A DNA stretch of 64,000 bases, taken from positions 19,008 through 83,007 of IMG/VR virus record IMGVR_UViG_3300013383_000027. The stretch is one strand, 5' to 3'. Position 1 is the stretch's first letter, and each line of letters opens with the position of its first letter. The stretch is from a virus. Its lineage: Duplodnaviria; Caudoviricetes. The position numbers and the translations under genes were made by a program. The notes beneath the pieces are model-generated. The model saw only the letters and a list, made by a program, of their open reading frames with translations. It did not search any database and was not told the origin of the DNA. This document shows, piece by piece, positions 17,660-63,717 of the stretch.

Positions 17660-17666
17660 TATTTAC
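17660..17666 (-). promoter_or_regulatory. Late-promoter motif GTAAATA
   Basis: 21 nt upstream of the gp6-like ATG. Confidence 0.65.
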
Positions 17667-17717
17667 GAAAAATTTAACAAGAAAGATGCCAGGTCTTCAG
17701 CACGACACAGAGTTCAC
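17667..17717 (+). mobile_element. 51-bp IS200/IS605-end-like mini-element (imperfect stem)
   Basis: TTTAC|GAAAAATTTAACAAGAAAGATGCCAGGTCTTCAGCACGACACAGAGTTCAC. Confidence 0.75.
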
Positions 17718-17727
17718 ATTTTAGATC

Positions 17728-19785
17728 TCAGTCATTGACTTTGCTAACTTTGTTTGTAGCCTGGTTTTCTATGGTAGCCTTGTTTGACATGGCATCGTTC
17801 TGAAACTTCAATATAAGTGCAATGTTGTTTTTGTTCTCCAGTTCAAGCAGCATAGATTTGGCTGCAGCATCCTCGGAAAAGGACCCTCCAAGATCTTTCA
17901 ACGAACTCACAAATCCATTTCCAAACGAACTATACATATCATCCTTGGCTTTCTCGATTTCCTGTGACGATTTCTCGCGTTCCGCAAGTATTTTTTCGTT
18001 ATTCTTCGCCGTCTCAAGATCTTTCTTCTCTTTTTCAGCTTTGATTTTTTCTGTCATTGCTTTTTTTATCTGTTCTGGGCACTGAACTGTTGGAAATGAA
18101 GTAAACAACTGGCTTATCTAACCACCATAACCCATAGATGCAACCTACATCTGCGCCGCCATTTCTTTGAGTTTCTTCTTCCCAGCCTCATACATCACCT
18201 ATGGCATTGTCTTCATCAACGAAAATATCTTTGGCATTAACTCGATTGCCGTATCTAAAAGATTTAATGGATACGGAAGTGGTAATTCTCCGCCGGTTAC
18301 CGCTGACCAAAGATTTTTTACAATAGAAATCAATGCATTAATCATGTTGAATATAAGCTAAACGAGCAAAGTTGGCAACATCATCATAAGAAGATTGATG
18401 GTCTGCATCATTGACGAAAGGGACTATTTCCATGTATCTGGAATCTAAGCCTTATCCTTCCACTTTTCTATCAACTTCTTCTAGTCGTCCGTCAACGTAG
18501 AAGTATCTGAACTTTTACTTGACATCATCTTTAATATATCTGATATTGGCGATGCAACCGGAGGAAGTGGCAACTTTAATTTCGTAACGCCATCAAACAC
18601 AGGATCCATCATTGATTGCAATTTTTGAAGTACTGAGTCCACATCACCCTTTATATCCAACGACGGAATATTACGCAAAAAACCAGTTACAACAAGAAAC
18701 AATATGCTTTCAAGTTTATCAAAATCCTTCATTAAATCTTGTGGCAGTTTGGCAAATTTCTTGGCGGCATCTTCAAGCATCTGGAAATTCTTCAACTTAT
18801 CAAGTGAAGATACATCCATTTCTTGCACTTCAATTTGTTTTTTGCAAGCTTTTAAGACTTTCTCATTCATCTTCTCAGCCATCGAAGCTGCCTTATTAAG
18901 CGATTTTTCATATGATGAACATATCTATCTAAAAGCAGCCTAAACATTTTGAAGGAATTGTTTTTGAATCCCCTGTATCTGCTTCTGCATGGATTTCATC
19001 TACGCCTGGTTTTTTGCAACCTCATCCAATGTTCCTCCGGATTTGTTAAGGTTGTTAATCTTCGCCGCTATCTCACATGCTTCTGTATCAACATCCTTGA
19101 ATTCATCTGAACTTTCTATTGTCGCAAACAACGACTCTGTCACAGCCCCGGTAGAATACACTATCGGAGGTGTTGATGTATCTGATGTAGCCTTCCCATA
19201 TTCTGTTATATGAACAGAACTCCATTTAATCAACACACCACCGTCATTACTACCTTCAAGCTGATAATTGTAATACGGATATTTTTTATCGGCATATTCA
19301 TTTACACGTTCAATAAACTTGGAAATATCCTAGTTTATCTGTTTCTTTGTGTCTCCAAATTTTTTCTATAACTCCTCCAGTGTAATATTCGAACTGTCTC
19401 CACCTGGGGTCAGCTGTTTAACAAGATAATCATATATTGTAACCTAAAGCTTTGTCGTTATATCGGCGTTTTTCTCGACTTCTGCTACAACATCTTTTGC
19501 CGTAAGCATTTCAAGTTGTTTTTGTAGGTACTTTTTCTGTGCTTCAAGATTTCCGTCATAGTTCTTGGAACATGCGTCTGTTGCCATTTTGGTCAACATG
19601 TCAGCAAGAACCTTTTTGTTCTCTTCTGTTTCAAGGATAGGACCACCGCCGGACTTCACCATTGTGTTTATCCGGTTTTGCATCTGTTCGATATTCTTCT
19701 GTGTCGCCCCATACTTCCGTCTAAAATCGTTCTTGGCTTTTTCTTTGCTGAGATTTGCTTTTACCTATGCTTTCGTAAGTGCCAT
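17728..19785 (-). CDS. Uncharacterised helical protein, 685 aa, 14 in-frame TAG, AT-rich, downstream of the gp5-like gene
   Basis: Frame open except for TAG from ATG 19785 (SD GGAGG) to TGA 17728; joins four track ORFs. Confidence 0.7.
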
Positions 19786-19850
19786 TGTTTCCTCCAAAAA
19801 TATTTTATTTCGCTTACCAAAAAAGGGACCATTTTCAGTAGTTGCCAGCT

Positions 19851-20618
19851 TCAAACACAGTGCAGACCATTAGGAAGCGATACTGCCGTTATATAACCAT
19901 CCGGAACATCCATTGTTACTGTATCACTGATTATTGTTACACCATTTTGACCGGTCTTACTTATACTGCTCTTTTTTGACGTGTTATCCTTTGTGTTGAA
20001 TGTTATATATGGCGATGAAAACTTCATCTGTTTTGATGCATCGACCGTAAATGTCTCCGTCTCAAGCATGATGCTCTTCGTACCATATATCTAGACACAA
20101 CCATTCTCGTCCATTTCAATCTACGCAATCCTCTCTTCATTTGTCTTTGTGTCTTTACAATGGTTCTTTATGGTGACATGCCCAAGCTCCGAAATCATAA
20201 CCGTACTGTTTCCGCATGTTATTTTGTGTACATATGCACCACCACTTGGACCGACCAGGTCGTCTTTTGTCGGGAGTTTTTGTTCACATGTGGCAAACTA
20301 TCCGGCCGAATTTGTAGTACCTGGGCACGCCGCAAAGTACACCGGGAAATTTGGATCTCCATTCTGAAAAAAACACCAGACAACAGAACCTTCGTTTGGA
20401 TACGAAAACATACCATTTCCGTCATTGCATCCACCGAATAAAGGAGAAGCTTGCTCACAATCTGGAAGATTTGTCGCCTTGTCCAAGTTATTGAATTCTT
20501 CGGGATATACGCCAGGAATAAATACTTTTAAAAATCCCTTTCCGTTTTTAGATCTGGCAAGAACCTTTCCACGATAAAACCCAATGAGCTTATTCCCCGT
20601 CGTTGTGTTCTGAGTCAT
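19851..20618 (-). CDS. Baseplate hub/spike protein with gp5/VgrG-type OB-fold, 255 aa (3 TAG)
   Basis: FYRGKV..KVFIPG..P..GSVVWCFFQNGDPNFPVYF is the gp5 N-terminal OB-fold signature. Confidence 0.85.
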
Positions 20619-20630
20619 TTCTCACCCCCC

Positions 20631-21218: not shown

Positions 21219-21225
21219 TATTTAC
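21219..21225 (-). promoter_or_regulatory. Late-promoter motif GTAAATA (no mini-element)
   Basis: 12 nt upstream of the gp25-like ATG. Confidence 0.65.
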
Positions 21226-21226
21226 G

Positions 21227-21255
21227 GAAAATGCCCAGGTTAACCTGGGCATTTC
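21227..21255 (-). terminator. Intrinsic terminator after the LRR gene
   Basis: AAATGCCCAGG-TTAA-CCTGGGCATTT. Confidence 0.7.
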
Positions 21256-22792: not shown

Positions 22793-22799
22793 TATTTAC
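22793..22799 (-). promoter_or_regulatory. Late-promoter motif GTAAATA
   Basis: 6 nt upstream of ATG 22786. Confidence 0.65.
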
Positions 22800-22850
22800 A
22801 GAAAACTTGACGAGAAAGATGCCAGGTCTTTAGCCTGGCATAGAGTTCAC
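22800..22850 (+). mobile_element. 51-bp mini-element (perfect hairpin)
   Basis: TTTAC|AGAAAACTTGACGAGAAAG-ATGCCAGG-TCTTTAG-CCTGGCAT-AGAGTTCAC. Confidence 0.85.
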
Positions 22851-25551: not shown

Positions 25552-25558
25552 TATTTAC
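25552..25558 (-). promoter_or_regulatory. Late-promoter motif GTAAATA
   Basis: 6 nt upstream of ATG 25545. Confidence 0.65.
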
Positions 25559-25601
25559 ATAAAATTTGACGAGAAAGATGCCAGGTCTTCAGCCTGGCAT
25601 A
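25559..25601 (+). mobile_element. Mini-element copy with a disrupted 3' end
   Basis: TTTAC|ATAAAATTTGACGAGAAAGATGCCAGGTCTTCAGCCTGGCATA then diverges. Confidence 0.75.
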
Positions 25602-25631
25602 TGAATCGTCATTCTTTCACATTGTTTTTTT

Positions 25632-25638
25632 GTAAATA
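25632..25638 (+). promoter_or_regulatory. GTAAATA motif on the plus strand, 5 nt upstream of the orphan omegaRNA scaffold
   Basis: TTTTTTGTAAATAATTTCGTACCGACGG. Confidence 0.45.
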
Positions 25639-25643
25639 ATTTC

Positions 25644-25774
25644 GTACCGACGGAACATCGGGAAATTACGCTTGTGGAGTTCAAGACCTCTGTCAACGAT
25701 GCTTGTAGTGTTGTTGATAAGTCTGAACGATGAAACAAGAAGATGCCATGTTTTTAGCATGGCATAGAGTTCAC
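25644..25774 (+). ncRNA. Orphan TnpB omegaRNA-like scaffold plus right end
   Basis: GTACCGACGGAACATCGGGAAATTACGCTTGTGGAG...TGAAC...hairpin ATGCCATG-TTTTTAG-CATGGCAT-AGAGTTCAC; aligns by eye with 45808..45933. Confidence 0.7.
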
Positions 25775-28866: not shown

Positions 28867-28873
28867 TATTTAC
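28867..28873 (-). promoter_or_regulatory. Late-promoter motif GTAAATA
   Basis: Upstream of ATG 28801. Confidence 0.6.
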
Positions 28874-28924
28874 AGAGAACTTGACGAGAAAGATGCCAGG
28901 TCTTCAGCCTGGCATAGAGCTCAC
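28874..28924 (+). mobile_element. 51-bp mini-element
   Basis: TTTAC|AGAGAACTTGACGAGAAAGATGCCAGGTCTTCAGCCTGGCATAGAGCTCAC. Confidence 0.85.
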
Positions 28925-29041: not shown

Positions 29042-31873
29042 TCAGCCGTGGGTATCTGATTCTGCATCGTCATTTGGCTTCATCTCCTTGTCATCCGGTT
29101 CCTGTTGAACAATCAGACTGGTGTCAATGCCAAGTTCTATGATCTTCTCAATAAGGCTCATGTTCTCCCGTCTCAGCTTGTCGTTCCTGATTCTTGACAC
29201 AAATAGCGGATCGGTTTGATCTTCGTTTTCGTTTTTCTTATCGTCCAAGCCGAGACTCTTTTGTGCCTCGCTGCATTCCGCTGCGATTTCTGCATCCACG
29301 TCCTTGTCTCCGCTGGGTGTCTTCAGAAACTCGAACAGTCCACCCAACACCTTGTCTATGGCAGGAGTGGTGTCGGACTCATCTTCGGGTGCCGACGTGT
29401 CTCTGAGAAGCGCAACGATATTTCTCTGCAATTCCCCATATGATTCACTGCCATTCTTTATGTCAGCATATGACCTTATGTTGTTTTTAATGATAAAATC
29501 GCGGAACAACGACTGAATTACATCCCTGAATTTTTCGACATGTTCATTTGAAACGGGGTTGTTTCCCCTTGCTTTCTTGTATTGTGCTATAAAATCATTT
29601 GTAAGAGACTCTATCGTGTCCTGCTGCCAGTCGGTAATCTGGAATCTGTCGGAAACCGTTTTGTTCATTAAATTCCACAAGTCATCAGAACTTTCCGTTT
29701 GCATATTAATAAAGTCATCTCTTCCAGACAGTATGTAATCTTTCAACGAGACACTTCCACCGGATGATATATATTTTGAAATATCACGCGATGCATAGCT
29801 ACCGGCTCCAATACCGGCATTTCCCGAAAAGTTACGATATATCTTGCATTGAACCTTGTCCGCATATTCCAGCACCAGTCCATTTGCGACGGACCGTATG
29901 TCAGAATATGGTATTAGCCCCTTCTGATATGCATCAACCGCGACGTTTAACGCATTTTGTTTTATTTGTAACAGACACTTATATGCTTTTAATCTCTCCT
30001 GGGGAATATTGACCGCTGTCAACCCATTCTCATTGTAACTTATGTCCCCTCTTTCGGCCTGACTTATCACGGAGTCAACGGTGAAATCAAGAAGCTCTTT
30101 TGTTGTTCCGTCTTTGAATACCTTGAATATCGATTGTCCAACCTCTCTTCCCTGTTCCATTGTAAGAAGCTTCTGTATATTCTCAACTATAGCGGCATGC
30201 CGTTCCCTTTCCTAATCTTCCTCGTCATTGATAGTCATCGTTCCAGAGATGCCATCCAAGCGGTTCTTCAGTTCATCCCTCTACTTCGCAAATTCCGACC
30301 TTTGTTTGTCATCATAGATCTTGTTGTTAGCCTTTTTGTCGAGCTCACCTATTTTGCCTTTCAAGTCCATCCGTATTCCACGGAGGTGTCTTTCCCTCTT
30401 CTGTTTGTACTTGTTCGTGACAGCGGCGATAAACATATTCTTCTGTCCGCGCTCACTCGCTGGCTTTTCCGGAACGCTCCCATATGCTTTTCCTATGTAA
30501 TAACCAGCTATTGAGCCGAGCGCGGTTCCAACACCCATGATAATTGGCTGCAGCGGTCCGAAGAACGAGCCGACAAACCCTCCGACAACACGACCGACCC
30601 ATGCGCCAATCACACCGCCCGCAGAGCCCCCGATTGCACCAGCCAAACTGAAGGAATTCAACTGTATGCCCATCTTGAACATCTTTGTCTTGAACGCCTT
30701 CATGTTAAGGTTTGCGATTGCAAGTTTGCGAAGATATGCCAGAAGAGGACTTTTCTTGAAGTATCCGGCTATATTCATTTTGATTTTGTGAACATCCCTT
30801 TTCTTGTCTTCCCACCATCCCCGGGCTTTATCCTTGTATTCCTTGTATTTTCCAACGATTTTCTGGTATATGAATCCAGCGACATAACCAACAATGAACA
30901 TTCCGGGTGGAGAAAGCAGAAATTTGCCGAACCGTTCAAGAAAACCGATATTAAGCCTTGCCACAAACGCCACAATTTTCTTGCAGACCCTAAATACGCC
31001 GGTTACGATTTTGGTTGCCACCCCGAAAACGGTCTTCGTGGCACCAAGCGCAACCGACACGATGCCCCTTGTCAAGGAAAAGATTCCCTTCAACATTCCC
31101 GAAACGATCTTGCCTATGCCGCCAAGTATGCCACCAATAAATCCAAGAACATTTTTGACCGTAAACAATTTCCTGATTCTGCGTATAATGGAAGACCCCC
31201 CCCATTTCGGTTGTTTTAACAACTCAGAACGCCGTTCCCGAGCCCGATTCACAACCTCAGAAAGCACGTTCTTGCTTCTGGATTGTTTCATTTTCTTGAG
31301 ATTTCGTGTCAACCAATCCGACGCACCATACTGTTTTTTCGTTTGATTGTGTACGTTTTCTGTTGTCTGCCGTCCGGTGGTTTTTACGGAAAAATCGCAA
31401 AAAGCCCTACTCAGCGTCTCCATCCTTTTGGTGTGACCCGTTTTGAGAACATTTATGCAGAAATCCGTTATCTTTTTAGCATATTCTGCGTTTTTTCCTA
31501 TATTGTTTTTGGGAATTTGTGTGTGTACACTTTTTTTAGTCTTTACCCTGTTGTTCAGGACACTTTCTATGTCTTCTTCTAGCCGCTTCTTTGTGTCCTG
31601 TGAAACCCCGAACTCCTTGACAAGAATATCTTGAATCGTGTCTTTCAGGGTCTCCATGAATTTTTCATCACCAAGCTGCTGGAGAATGATGTTGGCGTTT
31701 CCGTCAAGGCACTTTACAAGCTCTATTCTCCTGTTCTTCTCCTCAAGATGATGGTTGAGGTATGCTGTCTTCACAAGCGTATGCATTGCATGGCTGATTT
31801 TCGCATGACGCTCGAAAACCATCTCAAAACTGACTGGTTTAGTCTTGTTCAGCCGCCCGTAATCTGATTTCAT
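29042..31873 (-). CDS. Tape-measure-like protein A, 943 aa (TAG at 30281 and about 30212)
   Basis: Gly/Ile/Val/Lys amphipathic repeats (GFIGGILGGIGKIVSGMLKGIF), a hydrophobic AIGGSAGGVIGAW stretch, and position downstream of the tail chaperone. Confidence 0.7.
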
Positions 31874-35567: not shown

Positions 35568-35574
35568 TATTTAC
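35568..35574 (-). promoter_or_regulatory. Late-promoter motif GTAAATA
   Basis: Upstream of the SD and ATG 35545. Confidence 0.65.
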
Positions 35575-35617
35575 AAAAAATTTGACGAAAAAGATGCCAT
35601 GTTTTCAGTCTGACACA
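35575..35617 (+). mobile_element. Degenerate mini-element
   Basis: TTTAC|AAAAAATTTGACGAAAAAGATGCCATGTTTTCAGTCTGACACATA. Confidence 0.65.
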
Positions 35618-35691
35618 TAAATCGTCAATACCATTTTTGGTGAACTCTATGCATAGAATTCACAGTTCTGAAGAGTGTTCACACGAAAAAA

Positions 35692-37177: not shown

Positions 37178-37184
37178 TATTTAC
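37178..37184 (-). promoter_or_regulatory. Late-promoter motif GTAAATA
   Basis: Upstream of ATG 37160. Confidence 0.65.
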
Positions 37185-37235
37185 AAAAAATTTGACAAGG
37201 AAGATGCCATGTCTTTAGCATGGCATAGAGTTCAC
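37185..37235 (+). mobile_element. 51-bp mini-element
   Basis: TTTAC|AAAAAATTTGACAAGGAAG-ATGCCATG-TCTTTAG-CATGGCAT-AGAGTTCAC. Confidence 0.85.
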
Positions 37236-37264
37236 AAAAACCGTGCGGTCTCCCACACGGTTTT
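37236..37264. terminator. Terminator after the major tube gene
   Basis: AAAAACCGTG...CACGGTTTT stem. Confidence 0.65.
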
Positions 37265-37948: not shown

Positions 37949-37999
37949 AAAAAATGACGATTGTGGTTCGCCCCATGAATTTACAAAGAAAAAACACAG

Positions 38000-38027
38000 T
38001 TGACGATTTAAACAAAAACCGTATAAT
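38000..38027 (+). promoter_or_regulatory. Sigma70-like promoter of the homing endonuclease
   Basis: TTGACG-N16-TATAAT. Confidence 0.7.
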
Positions 38028-38058
38028 ACTTACTACTTAGCTTTATCTGGAAATTCCT

Positions 38059-39789
38059 ATGACATACAAAGAAATATCGCTCTTTCTCGAAAACTTGAAT
38101 ATCGGAAAATCGAAACGTGAAATTTTCCTGAAAAACCACTGTCCAGATATTTTAAATGAAATTTTAAAAGCAACGAAGTTTCTCGATGAGACGAACAAGG
38201 ACGACCGTGAGATAACTTTTGCTGAACGCGTTTTCTGCATCCTGCATAATATTCACGAACGTCCAAAATGCATACAATGTGGTTCTTATGTGATGTTTGC
38301 TAAAGATCGTGGTTGCTATCGTGAATTTTGTTCTCAAACATGTTCGAGAAAAAGCGAACAGACAAAGACGAAACGAAAAACCACAACATTGGAACGCTAT
38401 GGAAGTGAAACATTCCACAACATCGAAAAAGCAAAGAAAACAAGATTTGAACACAACAAAGGCAAATGGCATTCAGATGATTTCTCTAAAAAAGTGAAAG
38501 AGACGAAATTTGGGAAATATGGAGATGAAAACTGGAGCAATCCTGAAAAAACATCAAAGACAAATATGGGAAAATATGGCGTAGTCTATCCATTCCAATC
38601 AAAAGAAATAAGAAGCCGTGCCGTTGAGTCTTTTATGAAAAAACACAACGGAATATCTTGTGTGTTCAAACTTCCGTCTGTTATGAAAAAAACACACAAA
38701 GGAATAAGAAAAAGATCATACGGTTTCATTTTGGAAGATAAGAACATAACTCCGAATTTCACAGAAGAAGAGTACGTGAACGGTTCTTCCGAAACCGAAT
38801 TTGAATTCATATGCAGCAAATGTGGTTCGAAATTCAAATCGACATGGGAGCGTGGATTTTGCAAAAGATGTCCTACATGTTATCCTGAACCGTTTGGTAT
38901 GTCGAATGCAGAATGTGAACTTTATGAATTCCTGAAAAACAACTGTGGTTCTAAATGGTCTGTTTTTCATCGCACAGATATAAACAAAAACATTTTAAAT
39001 AAACGTGAAATAGATATTGTCCTGAAAAGTGTTTCAGGACAATATCTATGTATAGAATATGATGGACTTTTCTATCATTCGGAAGAAAATGGAAAACACA
39101 CAAACTATCACTTGTCCAAAACAGAAGAGTGTGAAAAATCTGGCATTCAGTTAATCCATATTTTCGAGAATGAATGGATTTCAAAACAAAAAATAGTCGA
39201 ATCGAGATTATTAAACCTACTCGGAATATACGAAAACACGGTGTATGCAAGAAAGTGTTCAATAAAAACAGTAGATAAAGATACAAAAGACAGATTTCTT
39301 GATCAAAATCACATCCAGGGAAAATGTTCATCTAGTTTTAACTGTGGTTTATATTTTGAAAATGATTTAATTTCATTAATGACTTTTGGAAAATCTCGCT
39401 TTTCAAAAAAATACGAATGGGAATTGATAAGATTCTGCAACAAAACGGGTTATCATGTTCCTGGTTCGGCCGGAAAACTGCTAAAATTCTTTGAAAAGAC
39501 AATGAAGCCAAAATCAATTGTCTCTTATGCGGACAGAAGATGGTCTGTTGGAAAACTATACTATTCACTTGGATTCAATCTAGACCACACATCAAACCCA
39601 AACTACTGGTATTTCAAGCCAAATAAACCATATGTAATCTACAACCGAATTGGGTTTCAGAAGCACAAATTACCGAAACTGCTGAAAGAATACGACCCAA
39701 AACTTTCCGAAACAAAAAACATGGAAAACAACGGATACATGAGACTGTGGGATTGTGGAAATCTGGTATTTGTGAAGACTTGTACTTAA
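38059..39789 (+). CDS. Free-standing Hef-like homing endonuclease (basic repeats, Vsr/PD-(D/E)XK-like domain, GNAT-like C-terminus), 576 aa
   Basis: REIDI..IEYDGLFYHS..KTEECEKSGIQLIHIFENEW; IVSYADRRWS; WDCGNLVF. AT-rich and oriented opposite to the tail genes. Confidence 0.8.
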   Translation: MTYKEISLFLENLNIGKSKREIFLKNHCPDILNEILKATKFLDETNKDDREITFAERVFCILHNIHERPKCIQCGSYVMFAKDRGCYREFCSQTCSRKSEQTKTKRKTTTLERYGSETFHNIEKAKKTRFEHNKGKWHSDDFSKKVKETKFGKYGDENWSNPEKTSKTNMGKYGVVYPFQSKEIRSRAVESFMKKHNGISCVFKLPSVMKKTHKGIRKRSYGFILEDKNITPNFTEEEYVNGSSETEFEFICSKCGSKFKSTWERGFCKRCPTCYPEPFGMSNAECELYEFLKNNCGSKWSVFHRTDINKNILNKREIDIVLKSVSGQYLCIEYDGLFYHSEENGKHTNYHLSKTEECEKSGIQLIHIFENEWISKQKIVESRLLNLLGIYENTVYARKCSIKTVDKDTKDRFLDQNHIQGKCSSSFNCGLYFENDLISLMTFGKSRFSKKYEWELIRFCNKTGYHVPGSAGKLLKFFEKTMKPKSIVSYADRRWSVGKLYYSLGFNLDHTSNPNYWYFKPNKPYVIYNRIGFQKHKLPKLLKEYDPKLSETKNMENNGYMRLWDCGNLVFVKTCT

Positions 39790-39840
39790 GTGAACTCTAT
39801 GCCAGGCTAAAGACCTGGCATCTTTCTCGTCAAGTTTTCT
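39790..39840 (-). mobile_element. 51-bp mini-element abutting the stop codon of the homing endonuclease
   Basis: Reverse complement matches the 22800 copy; TTTAC at 39841-39845 on the minus strand. Confidence 0.85.
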
Positions 39841-39842
39841 GT

Positions 39843-39876
39843 AAAAAAGAAGACCCGGTCGGGTCTTCTTTTTTTT
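39843..39876. terminator. Bidirectional terminator between the endonuclease and sheath 1
   Basis: AAAAAAGAAGACCC-GGTC-GGGTCTTCTTTTTTTT. Confidence 0.8.
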
Positions 39877-45613: not shown

Positions 45614-45620
45614 TATTTAC
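45614..45620 (-). promoter_or_regulatory. Late-promoter motif GTAAATA
   Basis: Upstream of sheath 2 ATG 45580. Confidence 0.65.
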
Positions 45621-45665
45621 AAGAGAAATGACGAGAAAGATGTCGGGTCTTCAGCTGTGAAATCG
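45621..45665 (+). mobile_element. Degenerate mini-element / left end of the decayed tnpB element
   Basis: TTTAC|AAGAGAAATGACGAGAAAGATGTCGGGTCTTCAGCTG. Confidence 0.6.
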
Positions 45666-45679
45666 CATAGTTTTTAGAT

Positions 45680-45933
45680 GATCTCATTTGCAGGAACTGT
45701 AGGCAATAGCTAAGAAAGAGAAATCTCAGTGGAATGGCAAGTATCTTCAGTGATTGTGGATATAAATTTGATAGGGACACTCATTCAGCAAAAAACACAC
45801 AATTTCGTACCGGTGGAACATCGAGAAATCACGTTTGTGTAATTCAAGATATCTAGAGATGACACTTATGGTGTTGACAAGTCTGGACACTGAAACAAGA
45901 CACACCTTGTCTTCAGCACGGTATAGAGTTCAC
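45680..45933 (+). pseudogene. tnpB: Degenerate tnpB 3' end (Zn ribbon) with omegaRNA/right end ending GAGTTCAC
   Basis: Translates as ICRNCRQ*LRKRNLS..DCGYKFDRDTHSAKN (CG..DRD.NAA.N motif), followed by GTACCGGTGGAACATCGAGAAATCACGTTTGTG and the terminal hairpin. Confidence 0.75.
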
Positions 45934-46238: not shown

Positions 46239-46769
46239 TTAAATAAAACTGTATTTAAACAATAGTTTTTGACTATAGAATTTACTGAAAACTGCGTTAT
46301 GGACATAATCCTGAAGCAGAAATCGATATTTCACTTTCGATTTTTTGATTTCTTGAAATGCTGATTTCCAGTTATCAAATCCAGATAGTGTTTGCTTCCA
46401 TTGCTCATCTATTCTTTCATCTTTGATATTTGGATAGAACCAACTTTTCTCAAACTTTCTGTATCCTCTTCTTGCTATTTCTATTGATGAAGCAACCATG
46501 TCTGGAGTATTTTTGTTTCCATACATGATATTTCCAATAAAACTTGAATAGCAAGGATTGACTTCAACTAAACTGAAATTGCAAAGTAAGGAAAGTGATT
46601 TCAGTTTATTGACAAACAAATTTCTATTCCATACATTATTGCATAGTCTATTGAAATACTTTCCTTGTTTTTTATCGGAACTTTTAATTGACAAATCTTC
46701 AATAACTACCTTGTCACATTTCCAATAATCAACAAGATTGCAAATATCATGAAAATACAAATACCACAA
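46239..46769 (-). pseudogene. tnpB: 5'-truncated TnpB-related (IS200/IS605 accessory, Cas12f-like) RuvC protein, C-terminal 176 aa
   Basis: VVIEDL (RuvC-II), EVNPCYSSFIGN and PDMVASSIEIARRG (RuvC-III). No RuvC-I region; a TGA lies 14 codons upstream of the TTG. Confidence 0.7.
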
Positions 46770-46823: not shown

Positions 46824-46873
46824 ACAAAAATGACAAGAAAGATGCCTTGTCTTCAGCATAGCATAGAGTTCAC
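46824..46873 (+). mobile_element. Mini-element preceded by TTCAC instead of TTTAC
   Basis: GTTCAC|ACAAAAATGACAAGAAAGATGCCTTGTCTTCAGCATAGCATAGAGTTCAC. Confidence 0.75.
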
Positions 46874-46988
46874 TATTGAAAAAATATTCTACCGATTCAT
46901 GACAACATCTGAAGAAGATTACCTTTTCTCAGCATAGGGGTTATAAAAAATATAAAAATGATATATGTTTGGAAAATGCATATTTTTC

Positions 46989-47017
46989 TTGATTTTTAGT
47001 GAAAAAAACGATATAAT
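46989..47017 (+). promoter_or_regulatory. Sigma70-like promoter of uvsY-uvsW
   Basis: TTGATT-N17-TATAAT. Confidence 0.7.
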
Positions 47018-47023
47018 GGTGTT

Positions 47024-47443
47024 ATGGAAACTGTAAAGAAAGAAATAACAGGCGTAAGGGATGTTCTTTCGTACAAGTCTGAACTTGATGAAGACGTAAA
47101 ACTGACAAAGCAGAACCTTCTCGAAAAATCCCTTATGGTTTCCGGCATCAGGACGAAATGGCTCGGATACTACTTCAACGAGAAATCCATCTTGGAAAGA
47201 ATCAAGAAGGGAAGAGAAAAGCTTCTAAGGGAACTGAACGGTTCTTCGCCCTCATATTCCGATCTGAAGATGAAATCAAATGACATTTTGACGAAAAAGG
47301 ACCCAAGGCTTCAAAAACTTGACGAACTCTTAAAGATTAACAGGGATAATGTAGATTTCATAGAGAGGGCGATGAACATACTTTCCGACATGATCTGGCA
47401 AATACGGACCAGTGTCGAACAGGTAAAGTTGGAGAGGATGTGA
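47024..47443 (+). CDS. uvsY: Recombination mediator UvsY-like, 139 aa
   Basis: Size, coiled-coil pattern and adjacency to uvsW as in T4. Confidence 0.7.
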   Translation: METVKKEITGVRDVLSYKSELDEDVKLTKQNLLEKSLMVSGIRTKWLGYYFNEKSILERIKKGREKLLRELNGSSPSYSDLKMKSNDILTKKDPRLQKLDELLKINRDNVDFIERAMNILSDMIWQIRTSVEQVKLERM

Positions 47444-51769: not shown

Positions 51770-51776
51770 TATTTAC
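51770..51776 (-). promoter_or_regulatory. Late-promoter motif GTAAATA
   Basis: 8 nt upstream of the gp14-like ATG. Confidence 0.65.
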
Positions 51777-51827
51777 AATAAAATTAACGAGAAAGATGCC
51801 ATGTCTTCAGCATGGCATAGAGTTCAC
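51777..51827 (+). mobile_element. 51-bp mini-element
   Basis: TTTAC|AATAAAATTAACGAGAAAG-ATGCCATG-TCTTCAG-CATGGCAT-AGAGTTCAC. Confidence 0.85.
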
Positions 51828-51838
51828 GATTTTTTTTG

Positions 51839-51867
51839 TTGACTTTTAGTCCTAAAAATGTTATTAT
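51839..51867 (+). promoter_or_regulatory. Sigma70-like promoter of the lipoprotein gene
   Basis: TTGACT-N17-TATTAT. Confidence 0.65.
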
Positions 51868-51890
51868 GGTGTTATAAAAAGGAAATAATC

Positions 51891-55074: not shown

Positions 55075-55081
55075 TATTTAC
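55075..55081 (-). promoter_or_regulatory. Late-promoter motif GTAAATA
   Basis: 6 nt upstream of ATG 55068. Confidence 0.65.
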
Positions 55082-55132
55082 AGAAAATTTGACGAGAAAG
55101 ATGCCAGGCTGAAGACCTGGCATAGAATTCAC
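55082..55132 (+). mobile_element. 51-bp mini-element with an inverted hairpin loop
   Basis: TTTAC|AGAAAATTTGACGAGAAAG-ATGCCAGG-CTGAAGA-CCTGGCAT-AGAATTCAC. Confidence 0.85.
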
Positions 55133-55210
55133 GGTTTTTTTTTGGTTTTTCCGTGAAAATGTCGGTAGAATACTCTTCATGTACTTCAATTGAATTCCGA
55201 GGAAACAAAA

Positions 55211-56836
55211 ATGGAAAAAATAGTCAATTACGGTGAAGAAGTGAATCAGAAGTTCCTGACAGGTGTCGCTAAGCTTTCAAGGGTCGTTGGCTCTACGCTT
55301 GGTGCCCGTGGAAGGAATGTCGCAATCGAGACGTCGCGCGGCGTCCATTGCACGAAGGACGGAATAACGGTGGCATCGTACTTTACACTCAAAGATCCCG
55401 TCGAAAACATGGGCGCAAACCTCGTACGAGAGGCTTCCGCAAAGACGAATTCCGAGTGTGGCGACGGATCCACGGGATCAATCATCCTCACAGAGGCAAT
55501 TTTCAAGAACGGTCTTAAGCACATCTCGCTTGGTGCAAATCCGGTTCAGGTCAAGAACGGAATAGACAAGGCTGCCAAGAAAGTCATCGAGTACGTCAAG
55601 TCGAAAGCTATTCCAATTTCAACCAAGGAGGAAATCAAGCAGGTCGCAAAGGTCTCGGCGAACGGTGACGACGAAATCGCCGAGGTTATCGCAGACATCT
55701 TCCAGAAAATCGGAAAGAACGGAACAATCCGGGTCGAGGACGGATCGTCTTCAATGGATTCGAAGGTTGTCGAGGGTATGGTATTCGAGGATCGCGGCTA
55801 CGTTTCCCCGTATTTTGCCAACAACGAGGCTCTTGAGTGCTACATGGACAACCCATATCTTCTCATAACGGATAAGCGTCTGTCCAACATAAACGATCTG
55901 ATACCGATTCTTCAACAGGTCTCAAAGACGGGTCGTCCGCTTCTCGTGATAGGAGAGGATATCGAGGGCGACGTTCTCTCAACCCTTGTCCTCAACAGGC
56001 TTCGCGGCGGCTTGACAATCTGTGCAATCAAGGCTCCGTCGTACGGCGACTACCGCAAAGGAATCCTCAACGACCTCGCCATCATCACAGGAGGACAGCT
56101 CGTCTCCGAAGATACCGGCATCAACCTTCAGGAGGTTACCCTTGAAAATGGCATACTTGGTCAGGCAAAGACGATTACCGTTACGAAAACCTCGACAGCC
56201 ATTATCGGAGGAAAGGGTGACAAGAGCAAGATCGATGAGCTTGTCGAGAAACTTTCCACCGAAATTGAGAACACGAAGGACGAATTTCAGGTCAAGAAGC
56301 TTCGCGAACGCCTGGCCAAGGTATCTGGTGGAATAGGGATCATCATGTGCGGAGCGCCAACTGAATCGGAACTCAAGGAGAAGAAGGACAGGGTTGATGA
56401 CGCGTTCAATTCCGCAAAGAACTCGATCCGTTCTGGCGTGGTGGCCGGCGGTGGAGTGACACTCCTTTCCGCACAGCGGGTTCTTGACCGTGCGTTTTCC
56501 GAAAACAACCTCCAGGGTGACGAGGGCATTGGCGTTGCAATTCTCCGCAAGTCGCTCGACGCGCCGATCCGTAGGATTCTCGACAACGCCGGTGAGAAGA
56601 CCGATCTAATCGTTTCAAAACTCACGGAAGAGACCACCAAGGAGGGTACGGGTTACGATGTGATTTCAAAGGAATATGTGGACATGGTCGGCTCCGGGAT
56701 AGTTGATCCGGCTGAGGTCATCATATCCGAAGTCAAGAATGCGTCTTCGATAGCAGGGCTGATGTTAACGACCGACGCATCTATTGTGTCGGCGGAGGAA
56801 AAAGACGACAAGGAACCCCCTGTTCCGCAGATGTGA
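55211..56836 (+). CDS. groEL: Phage-encoded GroEL-like chaperonin, 541 aa
   Basis: TKDGITVA, ENMGA, GDGSTG, KAPSYGDYRK, ERLAK and GGGVTL motifs; no GGM tail. Confidence 0.95.
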   Translation: MEKIVNYGEEVNQKFLTGVAKLSRVVGSTLGARGRNVAIETSRGVHCTKDGITVASYFTLKDPVENMGANLVREASAKTNSECGDGSTGSIILTEAIFKNGLKHISLGANPVQVKNGIDKAAKKVIEYVKSKAIPISTKEEIKQVAKVSANGDDEIAEVIADIFQKIGKNGTIRVEDGSSSMDSKVVEGMVFEDRGYVSPYFANNEALECYMDNPYLLITDKRLSNINDLIPILQQVSKTGRPLLVIGEDIEGDVLSTLVLNRLRGGLTICAIKAPSYGDYRKGILNDLAIITGGQLVSEDTGINLQEVTLENGILGQAKTITVTKTSTAIIGGKGDKSKIDELVEKLSTEIENTKDEFQVKKLRERLAKVSGGIGIIMCGAPTESELKEKKDRVDDAFNSAKNSIRSGVVAGGGVTLLSAQRVLDRAFSENNLQGDEGIGVAILRKSLDAPIRRILDNAGEKTDLIVSKLTEETTKEGTGYDVISKEYVDMVGSGIVDPAEVIISEVKNASSIAGLMLTTDASIVSAEEKDDKEPPVPQM

Positions 56837-56981: not shown

Positions 56982-58202
56982 ATGTTGAAAATAGATGGCA
57001 CTACCCTGATATCGTCCGATTGGCACTTCGGGATAAAGAATTCGCAGACGTCAAGACTCAAGATCATGGGCAACGTTGTCCGCGAGATGGCGAAGTACAT
57101 CCGCCAGAACAAGATTGACAATTTGCTTTTCCTTGGTGACATGTTCCATCAGAGGAACAACCTGTCGGTTCAGACGATAAACGTCGCAATCGGATGCATT
57201 GATACGCTCTCGAAACTGTGCAACATATACCTGATTCTCGGAAATCACGATCTCTACAACAAAAACACGAACGAGATACATTCCCTGAACATCTTCAGGA
57301 ACACGAGAAATGTAACCGTCGTTTCAAAACCGACGGAAGCGATGATAAATGGGGAAAAATGCCTTCTTGCGCCGTGGCTAACAGATCTTACCGCATATGA
57401 GAAGGATTCGTTTGACAAGATGTTTGGACACTTCGATATTTCTCCGCAATATCTACTTGCATCCTACATCGAGCACAACAGGGAGAAGAATGTTGCATCT
57501 TTGGGTGCACTTGCTGCAATCGAAAACGACGAAATGCTGATGGAGTCTGGTCTTGATGGCATTGATTTCAATAGCGATGTAGACAAGAAAATTTTGAACG
57601 GCGATGTCAAGTCGTCCGAAATGATTGGAAGTTGGATAGAGGTCGTCAAGGACGGTGGAACAATATTCTCCGGACACATACACAACAGGAGTGAGTTCGT
57701 TTCGAAGGGGAGACAGTTCATATTTGTTGGTTCCCCATATCAGCAGACACTTGGGGAAATTGATTCAAACGATGGGTTCTACATTCTCGACAGGAAAAAC
57801 CGGTGGTCATTCCATCCTCTTTCCGGGATTCCGGTCCACGTCGACCTTGTCATGTCGAGAATCGTAAAGGACATTGACGGTTTCGACTTTTCCGTCGTGA
57901 TCGGTAATATAGTTCATAAAATATATGATGTTGAGGTCGACCGTGTTCTTGATGCGAAGATAACGAGAAAAATAGTAGATGCAAAGCCATATGAGGAGAT
58001 AACACCCGAGTACGACATCAGGGCATCCTCCGAAGACGTAGATGATGAGACGGTGAAGGCACTAAAGAAGTCGAAACTCGAGTACCTTCACAATTATATC
58101 AACAGCATAGACGACTCCACCCTGAAAAAAGAAGATCTTGACAGGGGACGCCTGTTTGAGATAACTACGGAGTATTACAACATGGTTGATGAGGGGGTCT
58201 GA
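56982..58202 (+). CDS. Recombination nuclease, T4 gp47/SbcD-like metallophosphoesterase
   Basis: SDWHFG, LGDMFH, GNHD, GHFD, GHIH and VGSPYQ motifs. Confidence 0.9.
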   Translation: MLKIDGTTLISSDWHFGIKNSQTSRLKIMGNVVREMAKYIRQNKIDNLLFLGDMFHQRNNLSVQTINVAIGCIDTLSKLCNIYLILGNHDLYNKNTNEIHSLNIFRNTRNVTVVSKPTEAMINGEKCLLAPWLTDLTAYEKDSFDKMFGHFDISPQYLLASYIEHNREKNVASLGALAAIENDEMLMESGLDGIDFNSDVDKKILNGDVKSSEMIGSWIEVVKDGGTIFSGHIHNRSEFVSKGRQFIFVGSPYQQTLGEIDSNDGFYILDRKNRWSFHPLSGIPVHVDLVMSRIVKDIDGFDFSVVIGNIVHKIYDVEVDRVLDAKITRKIVDAKPYEEITPEYDIRASSEDVDDETVKALKKSKLEYLHNYINSIDDSTLKKEDLDRGRLFEITTEYYNMVDEGV

Positions 58203-58204
58203 AA

Positions 58205-60037
58205 TTGAAACTCGTATTCAGGAAGCTTGAGATTCACAACTTCATGTCGTTCGCGGACGAGACAATTAACTTCGACGACTTTCCCGGGATGACAAGGATA
58301 ACGGGAAGGAACTTCGACCTTCCGAACCAGAAGAACGGTGCGGGCAAGAGCTCCATATCGAATTCGCTTGTCTATGCGTTATACGGACAGCTTCCATTCA
58401 AACTCAGAAACGACAATATCTGCAACCGGTATGTCAAGGACAAAAACGTGTGTGTTGCCCTTACGTTCGATTCCGCCCGCCGTCACTTCAAGGTCGTCTC
58501 AGGCATGAAGGGGCGCACCTCGTACTGCAATCTGTTCGAAATCGTCAAGGGTGAGGAGAAGGATATCACGAAATCGACGATAGCCGAAACGAGGCTGTTC
58601 CTCGAGAGGGAGATATTGAGATGTGACCTCAACCTGTTCATGCGGACGATATTCCTGAACTCGGACCCAAACTACAACTTCTACAACCTGAAGAGCGTAG
58701 ATAAGAAGGAGTTCATCGATAAACTCTTCGACATATCAAAATTCGGCAACATGTATGGGGTAATACACAGGGATGTCCTGTCAATGGACAAGGACATCCT
58801 CGCCCACCAGAACAGGCTTATTGTCATGAACAACGCAAAAGCTGACTACGAGGAGCGGTCGCGGGAATTCGAGGAGAGGAAATCTCGTAATGTCGCGTCA
58901 CTCGAAAAGGAATTGAATGGTCTTCGGGTGGCGTTCGACAGGAAGAGTAAGGTCGTTGTTAAGAGGAATACAGAGTTAATCTCCAAGTGTGAAGGGGGAA
59001 TAGGGAAGCTCGAAAGGTCAATTGGTTGTGTTAACGAGTTGATAACCAAGGTTGACATTGAACTGGGAGGTCTGAAGCATTCGATTTCAAGGTGTATTTC
59101 GTCGATATCCGATAAACAGAGGATAATCGACAGGCACAGCGAACTGAAGTCGAGGTTGTGTGACGGATGCAGGGAGATATTTTCAGACTATTATTCTCTC
59201 AAGAAGTACGAGGATGAGATATCCAGGCTCACGAAGGAAAGGGACGGTTCCGAACGGAGGGTTTCTGAGCTGAAGGAACGCCGCGAAAAGCTTGTTCTGG
59301 AAAAGAAAGACCTGATTGAAAAGCGGGAAAAGCTTTCAACAAACCTCGTCAAGTTGAATTCGGATTACGACAGTGCGCAGAAGGAACTCAGAAGACTTGA
59401 ACTTGACATTGGGGGGTGCAAATCCCACCTTGACAGCGAGAGGAAATCCGTGAATCCATATGAACGCATGATAGAGGAGAACAATTCGAAGATTTCCGAA
59501 GAAATGGGAAAATTGTCGGAGATTGTGGATAGATACAGGTACGTGAAGTTTGTCGAAGGGATGGTCAACCAGGACAATCTCAAGAAATTCGTCATCCGCG
59601 ATCTCGTTGGATTGCTGAACAACAAGATAAAGTACTATCTGCACAAGCTCGGGGCGGACTATGACATCGTGTTTAATGACGAGATGGACTACGATTTCGT
59701 GACTGAGGCTAAGGATGGCGTCGAGTTCAACAACTTCAGCAAGGGAGAACAGGCTCGAATCTCGATAGCGACGTGTTTTGCGTTCCGGGATTTTCTATCG
59801 ACGAGAAGCAACATCTCCGCAAACATACTAATTCTCGACGAATTTTTCGACGGCAATGTCGATCCGTCCGCAATCGAGAACACGGTTGACATCCTTAGTG
59901 GATTCGTCAGGGACAACAGGCAGAAGATATTCATCGTAAGCCATCGTCTCGAAGTCAATGACGACATATTCACAACAATCATGAATGTCAACAAGCGCAA
60001 CAAGATAAGTTCAATACAATGTGTCAAGATGCGTTAA
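58205..60037 (+). CDS. Recombination ATPase, T4 gp46/SbcC-like
   Basis: Walker A NGAGKS, coiled coil with CDGC hook, FSKGE signature, ILDE Walker B, SH loop. Confidence 0.9.
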   Translation: MKLVFRKLEIHNFMSFADETINFDDFPGMTRITGRNFDLPNQKNGAGKSSISNSLVYALYGQLPFKLRNDNICNRYVKDKNVCVALTFDSARRHFKVVSGMKGRTSYCNLFEIVKGEEKDITKSTIAETRLFLEREILRCDLNLFMRTIFLNSDPNYNFYNLKSVDKKEFIDKLFDISKFGNMYGVIHRDVLSMDKDILAHQNRLIVMNNAKADYEERSREFEERKSRNVASLEKELNGLRVAFDRKSKVVVKRNTELISKCEGGIGKLERSIGCVNELITKVDIELGGLKHSISRCISSISDKQRIIDRHSELKSRLCDGCREIFSDYYSLKKYEDEISRLTKERDGSERRVSELKERREKLVLEKKDLIEKREKLSTNLVKLNSDYDSAQKELRRLELDIGGCKSHLDSERKSVNPYERMIEENNSKISEEMGKLSEIVDRYRYVKFVEGMVNQDNLKKFVIRDLVGLLNNKIKYYLHKLGADYDIVFNDEMDYDFVTEAKDGVEFNNFSKGEQARISIATCFAFRDFLSTRSNISANILILDEFFDGNVDPSAIENTVDILSGFVRDNRQKIFIVSHRLEVNDDIFTTIMNVNKRNKISSIQCVKMR

Positions 60038-60880: not shown

Positions 60881-60956
60881 GAAAACACATAAACAGATTT
60901 TGCCAAAAAACTACATTTTGGACACAATAAATTTTTTGAAAACCATAAAGGAACAA

Positions 60957-61337: not shown

Positions 61338-61347
61338 AGGTCTTAAA

Positions 61348-62109: not shown

Positions 62110-62568
62110 TCAAATCAACTGTTTTTCAGTTATCACCCTGAAGACCGCGCCGTTCAGCCGTGCGGTCTTTTTCGCCTGTTCCCATTTTGACTTGTTTTTG
62201 ATCCACGTGATGACGTTTTTTGTCTTGCTTTCATTGACGGGTCTCTTGACTTCGCTCGAATGCTTCACTTCTACCCATATTTTCTTCGTCCCACCCTTTC
62301 CATCAGAAACCCATATCACGAAATCAATGAAGTAGTTTCTCAGTTTCGGTGGATTAGACGACCTGTCCATGTACTTTATGTGCACGGTTTCGTACTGCCA
62401 GCATACAATGTCCTTGTTCCTGTCGCAGTAGAGCATGAATCTGTGTTCCAGTTTGCTCTTGAACATTGGGGGATATTCACCACGATACTTTTCCCTGTGA
62501 ATCGGGAAGTACTTCCCCGTTTCCGCATTGGAGTATTTCCCTCTGTGCTGTCCGTTAACCCTAATCAT
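62110..62568 (-). CDS. Head completion nuclease, T4 gp4-like (TnsA-like fold)
   Basis: GKY.P..REKYRG, FKSKLE..FM.YCD.N..I..W, YFIDF, VEVK and NKSKW motifs. Confidence 0.85.
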   Translation of the reverse strand: MIRVNGQHRGKYSNAETGKYFPIHREKYRGEYPPMFKSKLEHRFMLYCDRNKDIVCWQYETVHIKYMDRSSNPPKLRNYFIDFVIWVSDGKGGTKKIWVEVKHSSEVKRPVNESKTKNVITWIKNKSKWEQAKKTARLNGAVFRVITEKQLI

Positions 62569-63520
62569 CTGGAAGTTCGTCGAAATTCCATTCTAGCCTG
62601 TCAACGTAATCGCTGTCGTCGAAACCCTGTGCACACAAGGAATCCACCCAATCCATGTGTCTGCTGTAGCTTGAAAGAAGTGGTACCGGGTAAAATCCGA
62701 CATACATTCTGTTGATTAGCGGAATGAAACCGTCCTGTTTCGGATCTTCAATTGGAACCTCAACCGAAAGTTCTGTCGAGATTTCTGTCGTCACCTGTTC
62801 CGTCACGGTTATCGAAAGGTCCTTGTCCAGAAAGTCCTCGATATGCCTCTTGTCGTCGTCTGTAAGTTTGCGGATATACGATGACAGTCCCGTGTACTTT
62901 CTTACGTCAACGATTGTCGATATTTCGGTTGTCCTCTATTTTGCCTTCTGGTTTCCGCAGAACATGTATGTCTTGAACGTGAAGTTGCAGGTAGCCTGTA
63001 TGAGATCGTCTGTCGATGGGTCAATCTCGTCGCCGTGATCCTCGGTTATGCCATCCTCCATTATGACCTGGTTTGTAAAGAACAGCCCTTCGAACTTCGG
63101 ATGTTGACACCTGACGAACAAATCCTTGTTGAAGAACGGTATGAAATTTGAGAGAGCCTTGTCAATCTGTTCCTGGTATTTTGATATAATTGTGACTTCG
63201 TACGATATGTCAATGGGGACCGGAGTGAATATATTGTAATTCAGCCTTCTCGATGATGTTGCATATTTCACCTCGTTGTTGACGTTCGCAAGCCTGTCAT
63301 TGTTCTTTGTAACCCCCGTTCTCTGTATCACGATGAGCGGAAGATTGTAAATTGCGTTCTTGTCCGGGTTTTCAAGGCTCTTGAATATCCTCGACCTGTT
63401 CCCGAGGACACAGGAGAACCTTGTCCTTTTGTTTCCCTACTGTATGGCTATGTTGCTGAAAAGACGCTTGAACTGCGCATTTGCAAGAGATAGCTCCTGA
63501 TTCCAAGACTGAATTTCCAT
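62555..63520 (-). CDS. Tail sheath stabiliser/completion protein, T4 gp15-like, 321 aa (3 TAG)
   Basis: FKRLFSNIAI, LPLIVIQRTG and PVPIDISYEVTI..EQI..FIPFFN motifs; true stop TAA at 62555. Confidence 0.8.
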
Positions 63521-63539
63521 TACAGATAACTTTTAGGCA

Positions 63540-63546
63540 TATTTAC
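63540..63546 (-). promoter_or_regulatory. Late-promoter motif GTAAATA
   Basis: Upstream of the gp15-like ATG 63520. Confidence 0.65.
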
Positions 63547-63598
63547 AAGAGAAACGACGAGAAAAAATGCTACGTCTTCGGTATGGCATAGGGTTCAC
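63547..63598 (+). mobile_element. Degenerate mini-element (52 bp)
   Basis: TTTAC|AAGAGAAACGACGAGAAAAAATGCTACGTCTTCGGTATGGCATAGGGTTCAC. Confidence 0.7.
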
Positions 63599-63666
63599 GG
63601 GTGATTTGACAAGAAACATGCAAATTATTCAGGCGAAACAGCCGCCACAAAAGCAAGAAAATCCAA

Positions 63667-63717
63667 GTGAACTCTATGCCAGGCTAAAGATATGGCATCT
63701 ATCTTGCGAATTTTTGT
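63667..63717 (-). mobile_element. Mini-element, minus orientation
   Basis: Plus strand reads GTGAACTCTATGCCAGGCTAAAGATATGGCATCTATCTTG. Confidence 0.7.

Follow-up and report, generated by a model that had tools for sequence, protein, structure and literature searches.

Members of the IS200/IS605 family of insertion sequences (IS), such as IS608 of Helicobacter pylori and the ISGst elements of Geobacillus stearothermophilus, carry subterminal hairpins on one strand, each with a 4-nt guide at its 5' foot that pairs with the cleavage site. They insert 3' of a short motif without duplicating the target, and encode a Y1 tnpA together with tnpB and its omegaRNA. For IS608, the published sites and guides give TTAC as the left site and AAAG as the guide (PMC5934647); Meers et al. 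described guide/motif covariation and a transposon-encoded TTCAC motif in ISGst elements (PMC10055086). Here, we analyzed a 64,000-nt stretch of phage DNA (hereafter, the window), which comprises bases 19,008–83,007 of an 83,007-bp IMG/VR viral contig (labelled G000; CheckV completeness 32%) and in which an original prediction had noticed short hairpin units dispersed beside a promoter-like motif. We report that these ~51-nt units are, with high probability, non-autonomous miniatures descended from an IS200/IS605 element of the IS605 type, which inserts right after TTTAC, and that this family is in circulation within a TAG-recoded group of large phages related to T4.

The present family has the hairpins, guides, mode of insertion and tnpB with omegaRNA in common with these elements, down to the left site and guide of IS608 (PMC5934647) and the right-end TTCAC of ISGst (PMC10055086). 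It differs in that the dominant form is a 51-nt single-hairpin unit, that it is found in phages, its pattern being all but missing from 185,579 species genomes of bacteria and archaea, and that the only tnpA seen is disrupted. Palindrome-associated transposable elements (PATEs) are likewise non-autonomous, protein-less and presumed to be mobilized in trans, and omegaRNA-carrying PATEs have been noted (PMC10055086). A PATE-like element of 271 nt (PMC7290912) is closely resembled by one 216-nt unit of the window (left end, tnpB tail, right end), which is gene-less with both palindromic ends; two other units, of 89 and 313 nt, are so in part, with one hairpin damaged or deleted. PATEs keep both end hairpins, however, whereas the 51-mer has one, which joins the 5' half of the left end to the 3' half of the right end.

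Repetitive extragenic palindromes (REPs), with their RAYT (TnpA_REP) proteins, and REPINs likewise form short single hairpins dispersed through intergenic DNA; they are related to IS200/IS605 ends and have a tetranucleotide conserved at the 5' foot (PMC3333891, PMC3116915). In the present case there is no RAYT gene and no GTAG foot (AAAG, ATAG or GAAG instead), and the only Y1 gene lies within a tnpA-tnpB IS. REPs are thought to move as inverted doublets (REPINs), whereas the units described here have TTTAC/TTCAC boundaries and a visible tnpA-tnpB parent. Lastly, the PeSL cassettes of T4-type phages are dispersed, intergenic and ~50–70 bp long, and combine a stem-loop with a promoter; as with the units here, recombination and modular shuffling could act on them (PMC2839356, PMC4122927). 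PeSLs have sigma70 early promoters, real terminators and no transposon ends, whereas in the present units an IS end supplies the hairpin and the promoter core was there beforehand as the target. IS200/IS605 elements, TnpB and PATEs are well known; what is unusual in this case is the one-hairpin dominant form, the position of the target motif inside a late-promoter core, and the high copy density.

Results

The contig has a GC content of 46%, and ~92% of the genome is coding. It encodes a T4-like tail sheath, a gp15-like sheath stabiliser, UvsY, an SbcC-like protein, a metallophosphoesterase (SbcD-like), a helicase and GroEL. The minus strand holds most of the late-type genes of the window, and their reading frames stay open over long distances only if TAG is taken to encode an amino acid (Gln). 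A megablast search with 12 kb of the window gave no match among GenBank phages, and protein searches with the window proteins returned only distant T4-like and GroEL matches. Relatives of G000 were therefore obtained by pattern scans of IMG/VR, which also found the 51-nt unit in further viral contigs (given G numbers; all are fragments). A 14-mer scan of IMG/VR produced mostly chance matches, with real copies in only six contigs. Rfam (gathering thresholds) and ARAGORN returned nothing in the window.

The window contains 13 copies or derivatives of the unit, and one further copy lies elsewhere on the 83-kb contig, which bears out the dispersed hairpin family originally proposed. Within the window, the hairpin core (8-bp arms and a 7-nt loop) is present nine times when ≤2 mismatches are allowed, whereas shuffled sequences would give 0.01; repeat finding in the window recovered a 13-member family of 52 nt; and a profile built from eight copies gave 16 significant matches when run over all 83,007 bp of the contig, one of which falls beyond the window. 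In plus-strand orientation, TATTTAC is followed in the typical copy by 19 nt with AAAG at their end, then by a hairpin (8-bp stem, 7-nt loop) and finally by 9 nt whose last five are TTCAC. Nearly all copies had been taken to be 50–52 bp long and built alike. Seven copies are indeed exactly 51 nt, but three are composites that reach 216, 89 and 313 nt, two are inverted (39790–39840 and 63667–63717), and one (55082–55132) has a flipped loop. All window copies lie between open reading frames (ORFs), as first claimed, once TAG is translated as Gln. The copy at 22800–22850 and the inverted copy at 39790–39840, at different loci and in different orientations, are identical at 51 of 51 positions.

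GTAAATA, the minus-strand reading of TATTTAC, occurs 18 times in the window against 5.1 expected, and 16 of the 18 are on the minus strand. A copy abuts ten of these 16 (Table 1), which reproduces the earlier count. The six copy-free motifs are at 9620, 21219, 21967, 37942, 42598 and 50075: three of the four sites previously listed as empty (9620, 21219 and 42598) stand, the fourth was given as 50085 instead of 50075, and 21967 and 37942 should be added.

Precise absence from orthologous intergenic regions had been named in advance as a check. The sister phage contig G005 (184,635 bp; completeness 69%) aligns collinearly with the whole of G000, with 74–85% nucleotide identity. At 17.7k, 22.8k, 37.2k, 51.8k and 55.1k of the window, the upstream flank in G005 is joined directly to GTAAATA, without any duplication, and at 25.6k the entire 216-nt composite is missing as a single block, giving a sixth flush empty site. 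The promoters and genes are conserved in G005 where the copies are absent. At 45.6k, G005 again has no element on the promoter side, and the far flank is not alignable. Overall, ~14 elements in the 83 kb of G000 compare with two in the matching stretch of G005.

One of the G005 elements is a full-length parent. At the site orthologous to 35575–35663, G005 carries a complete ~1.9-kb element (L181, about 15056–16966), arranged as TATTTAC, left end, divergent Y1 tnpA, 430-aa tnpB, and a right end that terminates in TTCAC. The search for a Y1 TnpA that had been recommended thus led to a gene inside this full copy (PF01797, 71 bits), which is broken by an in-frame TGA and a frameshift. Its tnpB is intact (430 aa; phrog_506 transposase, E 9.5e-41). 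At contig position 1601, G000 has a clean solo unit, while G005 has a longer remnant made up of a right end, a tnpB/omegaRNA tail and a partial left end. These two shared sites (1601 and 35.6k) point to decay from long to short forms.

The same hairpins bound transposon genes in other phages. Contig G001, whose proteins have no blastp match to G000 proteins, carries them at one place only (about 31.7–33.16 kb), as both ends of a 439-aa tnpB (PF01385 OrfB_IS605 and PF07282 TNB). The upstream end comprises an ATAC motif, 18 nt ending in ATAG, the hairpin, and a distinct 3' flank; the downstream end comprises the tnpB tail, GAAG, the hairpin, and 9 nt ending in TTCAC. From this layout, the plus strand of the window corresponds to the transposon top strand. 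Further tnpB copies with the same ends were found in G007, G008 and a contig syntenic with G003, and full copies retain both near-identical hairpins on the same strand in G005, in G001 and in the G003-syntenic contig (L194). Within the window, both end hairpins are retained at 25559–25774, and tnpB persists only as 3' remnants (25638–25774 and 45683–45933). The 51-mer is a hybrid, in which the left end's 5' half (19 nt) and the right end's 3' half (9 nt) share one hairpin.

To examine the guides, 43 hairpins from 11 contigs were tabulated; the copies are related, and their counts are not independent events. AAAG goes with a left TTAC, ATAG with ATAC, and right-end GAAG with TCAC, with one exception (in G006), and the left flank is TTTAC in 21 of the tabulated hairpins. 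The AAAG at the hairpin foot, which had been proposed to act as a guide, therefore co-varies with the flanking target. In our own reading, positions 1, 2 and 4 of the motif would be complementary to positions 2, 1 and 4 of the guide, a scheme that also fits the published IS608 pairs TTAC/AAAG and TCAA/GAAT (PMC5934647). The three-way pattern is hard to explain otherwise.

Solo units are 85–94% identical in contigs of 25–50% GC whose genes are too diverged for DNA matching. Contig G004 (24.6% GC), which is syntenic but very distant (25–58% amino-acid identity), has solos at non-orthologous positions, and G009 and G010 have solos without being collinear with the window. Among the 185,579 bacterial and archaeal species genomes, the exact right-end pattern had a single match, in a contig binned as Sphaerochaetaceae. 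This contig is syntenic with phage contig G003 and holds a full tnpB copy at a site where G003 showed no element. The IS lineage appears to be largely confined to phages, and the Sphaerochaetaceae bin is a weak hint on the host.

Next, we considered the sites at which the units dock. GTAAATA resembles TATAAATA, the late-promoter consensus of T4. One G003 copy sits at an exact TATAAATA. In the window, GTAAATA lies 6–65 nt upstream of minus-strand start codons, and it is conserved between G000 and G005 amid otherwise diverged spacers. Motif resemblance, position and conservation together suggest that GTAAATA is a late promoter. The units had been thought to target this promoter, and TTTAC does complement its core; no special targeting is needed, however, and a copy identical to one beside GTAAATA occupies a non-promoter TTTAC. 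Outside the elements, 77 TTTAC sites were counted on the plus strand: ~59 are coding, none of which is occupied, and ~20 are intergenic, of which 11 are occupied. The full 7-mer promoter complement accounts for 15 of 18 intergenic TTTAC sites. Since TTTAC is the transposon-adjacent motif and nearly all intergenic TTTACs are promoter complements, docking at promoters follows without further specificity.

Several features of these promoters were noted in passing. The late ORFs whose minus-strand ATGs lie at 22786, 25545, 51761 and 55068 begin only 6–8 nt past GTAAATA; if GTAAATA is a –10-type element, their mRNAs would have little or no leader. Leaders of 17–65 nt with clear Shine-Dalgarno sequences are found at other late genes. 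ACC or AACC often precedes GTAAATA where no copy is present (9620 and others in G000, and the G005 empty sites), and the trinucleotide may be part of the promoter consensus; insertion displaces it by 51 nt and leaves T-rich sequence just upstream of GTAAATA instead. Three related sigma70-like promoters, at 46983–47030, 51833–51880 and 55137–55184, each with a TTGAC-type –35, a 17-nt spacer and a TATAAT-type –10, serve plus-strand genes (UvsY/helicase, a 190-aa ORF and GroEL) back to back with element-bearing late promoters. The three copies in these divergent regions lie directly against the sigma70-like promoters.

The individual units are listed in Table 1.

Table 1. Copies and derivatives of the unit in the window. 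TATTTAC is GTAAATA on the minus strand; solo, single-hairpin unit.
Position	Strand	Unit	Adjoining sequence	Comparison or remark
17667–17717	+	51-nt solo, right arm mutated	TATTTAC 17660–17666	Absent at orthologous G005 site
22800–22850	+	51-nt solo, stem intact	TATTTAC 22793–22799	G005 flush absence; 51/51 identical to 39790–39840
25559–25774	+	216-nt gene-less derivative	TATTTAC 25552–25558	Whole unit flush-absent in G005
28874–28924	+	51-nt solo	TATTTAC 28867–28873	Hairpin-core scan
35575–35663	+	89-nt remnant: left end and hairpin, internal deletion, right-end tip ending TTCAC	TATTTAC 35568–35574	Full 1.9-kb IS at orthologous G005 site, flanks match
37185–37235	+	51-nt solo, guide GAAG	TATTTAC 37178–37184	G005 flush absence
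39790–39840	–	51-nt solo, inverted	After minus-strand TTTAC (39841–39845)	
45621–45933	+	313-nt decayed IS	TATTTAC 45614–45620	G005: no element beside orthologous GTAAATA
46826–46873	+	Solo-like, ~48–50 nt, stem mismatched	TTCAC, not TTTAC; sigma70-like plus-strand promoter	
51777–51827	+	51-nt solo in divergent promoter region	TATTTAC 51770–51776	G005 flush absence
55082–55132	+	51-nt solo, loop inverted, divergent promoter region	TATTTAC 55075–55081	G005 flush absence
63547–63598	+	52-nt degenerate solo	TATTTAC 63540–63546	
63667–63717	–	51-nt solo, second subfamily (guide ATAG, target ATAC), inverted		

In the 216-nt unit, a left end comprising 19 nt, hairpin and 3' flank is followed by ~140 nt from the end of tnpB/omegaRNA and then by the right-end hairpin, with TTCAC as its terminus; the 3' part of the unit aligns with the 3' end of the intact G005 tnpB. 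In the 313-nt unit the left-end hairpin is damaged; a zinc-ribbon remnant of tnpB (a weak TNB match at 45683–45796), an omegaRNA/tnpB 3' remnant and a right-end hairpin ending in TTCAC make up the rest. A 416-aa ORF upstream of the 25.7k unit and a 576-aa plus-strand gene were considered as tnpB candidates and rejected, the latter being homing-endonuclease-like. The copy at 37.2k is followed by a separate canonical terminator hairpin (~37237–37262), which in G005 joins the promoter directly. The inverted copy at 39790–39840 lies at a non-promoter site: convergent genes flank it, and it sits in the A-tract of their bidirectional terminator.

Upon closer inspection of the hairpins, we noted that the 7-nt loop is inverted between unchanged arms in two copies (window 55101–55123 and G004 56616–56657), which is a signature of a template switch or of inversion within a palindrome. 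A hairpin at 21229–21254, 3 nt from the GTAAATA at 21219–21225, has a 9-bp stem and a TTAA loop; its arms match those of the IS hairpin plus one extra pair, and neither the 19-nt nor the 9-nt flank accompanies it. An old element may have given rise to a terminator here, or the likeness may be coincidental. In G002 (30160–30241, L034), a left end forms a long near-perfect palindrome, in which 18 nt including the TTAC target pair with its own 3' flank; the arrangement looks like two outward-facing left-end halves. In G004 (58201–58690, L040), two inverted solos bracket a gene for a small serine-rich repeat peptide directly upstream of tnpB, and this may be a composite arrangement.

Two neighbouring genes also deserve mention. 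The 576-aa homing-endonuclease-like gene (38059–39789, plus strand; phrog_3339, DUF7487) lies on the opposite strand amid late genes, and the DNA from ~37950 to 39860 has no counterpart in the collinear G005; homologues occur in G002 and G004 at 37–44% identity. A 176-aa ORF (46239–46769, minus strand), adjoining the decayed IS, has no Pfam match and is 94% identical to part of a 432-aa G003 protein and 89% identical to a 95-aa G002 ORF, even though the genes around it are not shared. It is a truncated copy of a gene of unassigned function, possibly a mobile one.

Discussion

Collectively, the membership of the ends in the transposon family, the insertion polymorphism, the defined target and boundaries, and the covariation of guide and target make it very probable that the units are miniature, non-autonomous IS605-type derivatives. 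The original prediction of a minimal one-hairpin element of IS200/IS605 origin, placed 3' of TTTAC, is accordingly upheld by the six flush absences in G005 and by a full tnpA-tnpB parent with the same ends.

The parent would be an element of ~1.9 kb, with a left hairpin after 19 nt ending in a 4-nt DNA guide, a divergent Y1 (HUH) tnpA, tnpB with its omegaRNA, and a near-identical right hairpin followed by 9 nt ending in TTCAC. It would move as single strands, with TnpA binding the hairpins and the cleavage sites being found by guide pairing, and would insert just 3' of a 4–5-nt motif, here TTTAC, without target duplication. Deletion between the two directly repeated hairpins would produce the 51-mer (left 19 nt, one hairpin, right 9 nt), and larger deletion intermediates (216, 89 and 313 nt) are present. 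Since TTTAC complements the GTAAA of the presumed late-promoter core and so much of the genome is coding, promoter-proximal TTTACs would be almost the only tolerated targets; copies would then accumulate directly upstream of late promoters and leave the genes unbroken. In the simplest reading, the copies are near-neutral hitch-hikers.

Several observations weigh against this explanation. The window had been described as lacking tnpA, and a PF01797 search found none there or in the rest of the 83-kb contig. The same search found none at E≤1 in G000–G004 and none at E≤0.1 in G009–G011, all of which are fragments; G007 gave a weak sub-threshold match (15.9 bits, E 3.2e-4). With the only tnpA found in the group disrupted, current mobility is hypothetical. 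Absence from G005 fits gain in one lineage and scarless excision in the other alike and cannot distinguish between them. The canonical TnpA synaptic complex contains two hairpins, which a one-hairpin unit does not match, and the AAAG guide of most solos, which is of the left type, mismatches the right-end TCAC at one position. Finally, no gp55-like late sigma factor was found among the ~20 ORFs scanned, on a contig that represents ~32% of the genome.

A separate question is whether the 51-mer itself moves. At least 33 solos stand against ~15 full or partial ends in the 11 contigs, and three G005 solos at three loci have one mismatched stem in common, which differs from the ends of the resident full copy. 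The majority of solos, the identical copies and the shared stem favour copying of a small unit, and we regard mobility of the solos as finely balanced, perhaps tipping slightly in its favour. The more specific proposal, that the 51-nt single-hairpin unit is the transposing substrate and that TnpA supplied in trans moves one hairpin, one guide and both cleavage motifs, is tentative and falls somewhat short of an even call.

Alternatively, the 51-mers might be immobile scars, each left by an independent full insertion that collapsed by hairpin-hairpin recombination, the 51-mer never moving by itself. The deletion intermediates in the window, the two shared sites at which G005 is longer and G000 shorter, and the mismatched, chimera-like stems of several solos are consistent with such a history, as is the UvsY homologue encoded by the phage, which presumably, judging from T4 biology, supports recombination able to delete between short direct repeats. 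We nevertheless think this unlikely: solos outnumber full or partial ends, the copies at 22800–22850 and 39790–39840 match perfectly at unrelated sites, the three G005 solos share a stem unlike the resident full copy's ends, and a dozen full insertions all collapsing at the same point is less parsimonious than the copying of a small unit. Logan contigs (four runs of one study; 20 kb) were discarded as evidence on excision in either direction, because these contigs break at repeats and their copy-copy joints are assembly-graph effects.

The hairpins might also have been co-opted after insertion, either as a 3'-end, terminator or processing signal or through an effect of the left 19 nt on the late promoter. 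A T-rich run comes after the hairpin on the gene strand, and a simple scan marks the hairpin as terminator-like. The damaged stems at 17.7k and 35.6k keep several pairs by G-U wobble on the gene strand only, and the usual ACC upstream of GTAAATA is replaced by T-rich sequence. However, the copies are dispensable at six sites in the sister phage, also occur in untranscribed divergent regions and in inverted orientation, and at 37.2k sit beside a proper terminator; one G002 copy has the opposite wobble bias, in numbers too small for a strand test. Co-option is therefore improbable, and the domesticated terminator or RNA-processing module suggested earlier is unsupported.

Least probable by far is a fixed, immobile and PeSL-like regulatory cassette, made of a terminator stem-loop and a phage promoter (a box near –30 plus GTAAATA) and spread by recombination only: the terminator-like T-rich run, the position between stop codons and GTAAATA, the pairing of two subfamilies with two promoter-like boxes (GTAAATA and GTATAAT), a G003 copy whose 19-nt stretch lies behind a different hairpin, and the precedent of PeSLs (PMC2839356, PMC4122927) speak for it, but the element is flush-absent in G005 where promoters and genes are conserved, the same hairpins bound tnpB/tnpA even in an unrelated phage that makes no other use of them, the divergent-region copies (46.8k, 51.8k and 55.1k) have no upstream co-directional gene to terminate, a canonical terminator already adjoins the element at 37.2k in both phages and makes it redundant, and the conserved 9-nt tip ending in TTCAC has no terminator role. 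Two earlier candidates, a terminator joined to a promoter (box at about –30) and an activator palindrome with its centre at about –43, were dropped in view of the empty sites and the tnpA/tnpB-bounded copies. The converse arrangement, in which tnpB elements inserted into a pre-existing cassette and the hairpin is an omegaRNA guide, was rejected: the hairpin is at both ends of full copies, and G001 has hairpins only at the IS.

If IS605-type miniature derivatives of this kind are indeed moved as 51-mers, they would be smaller than any IS200/IS605 substrate known and would link PATEs with REPs mechanistically; a clade of stop-codon-recoded large phages would have had its late promoters colonised, and the repeats may drive recombination of late-gene modules. 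TnpA dimer models, with one hairpin per monomer, do not obviously accommodate a one-hairpin 51-mer, which makes the unit a cheap and concrete substrate for studying what single-strand transposition minimally requires and how REP-like repeats arose. A transposon-adjacent motif within the late-promoter core is a natural case of an element parking where a densely coded virus tolerates it, and TnpB guides at such sites would target the late-promoter junctions of rival phages. The presence of the same ends in phages of 25–50% GC points to active exchange of the IS lineage within the phage community, and not with bacterial genomes.

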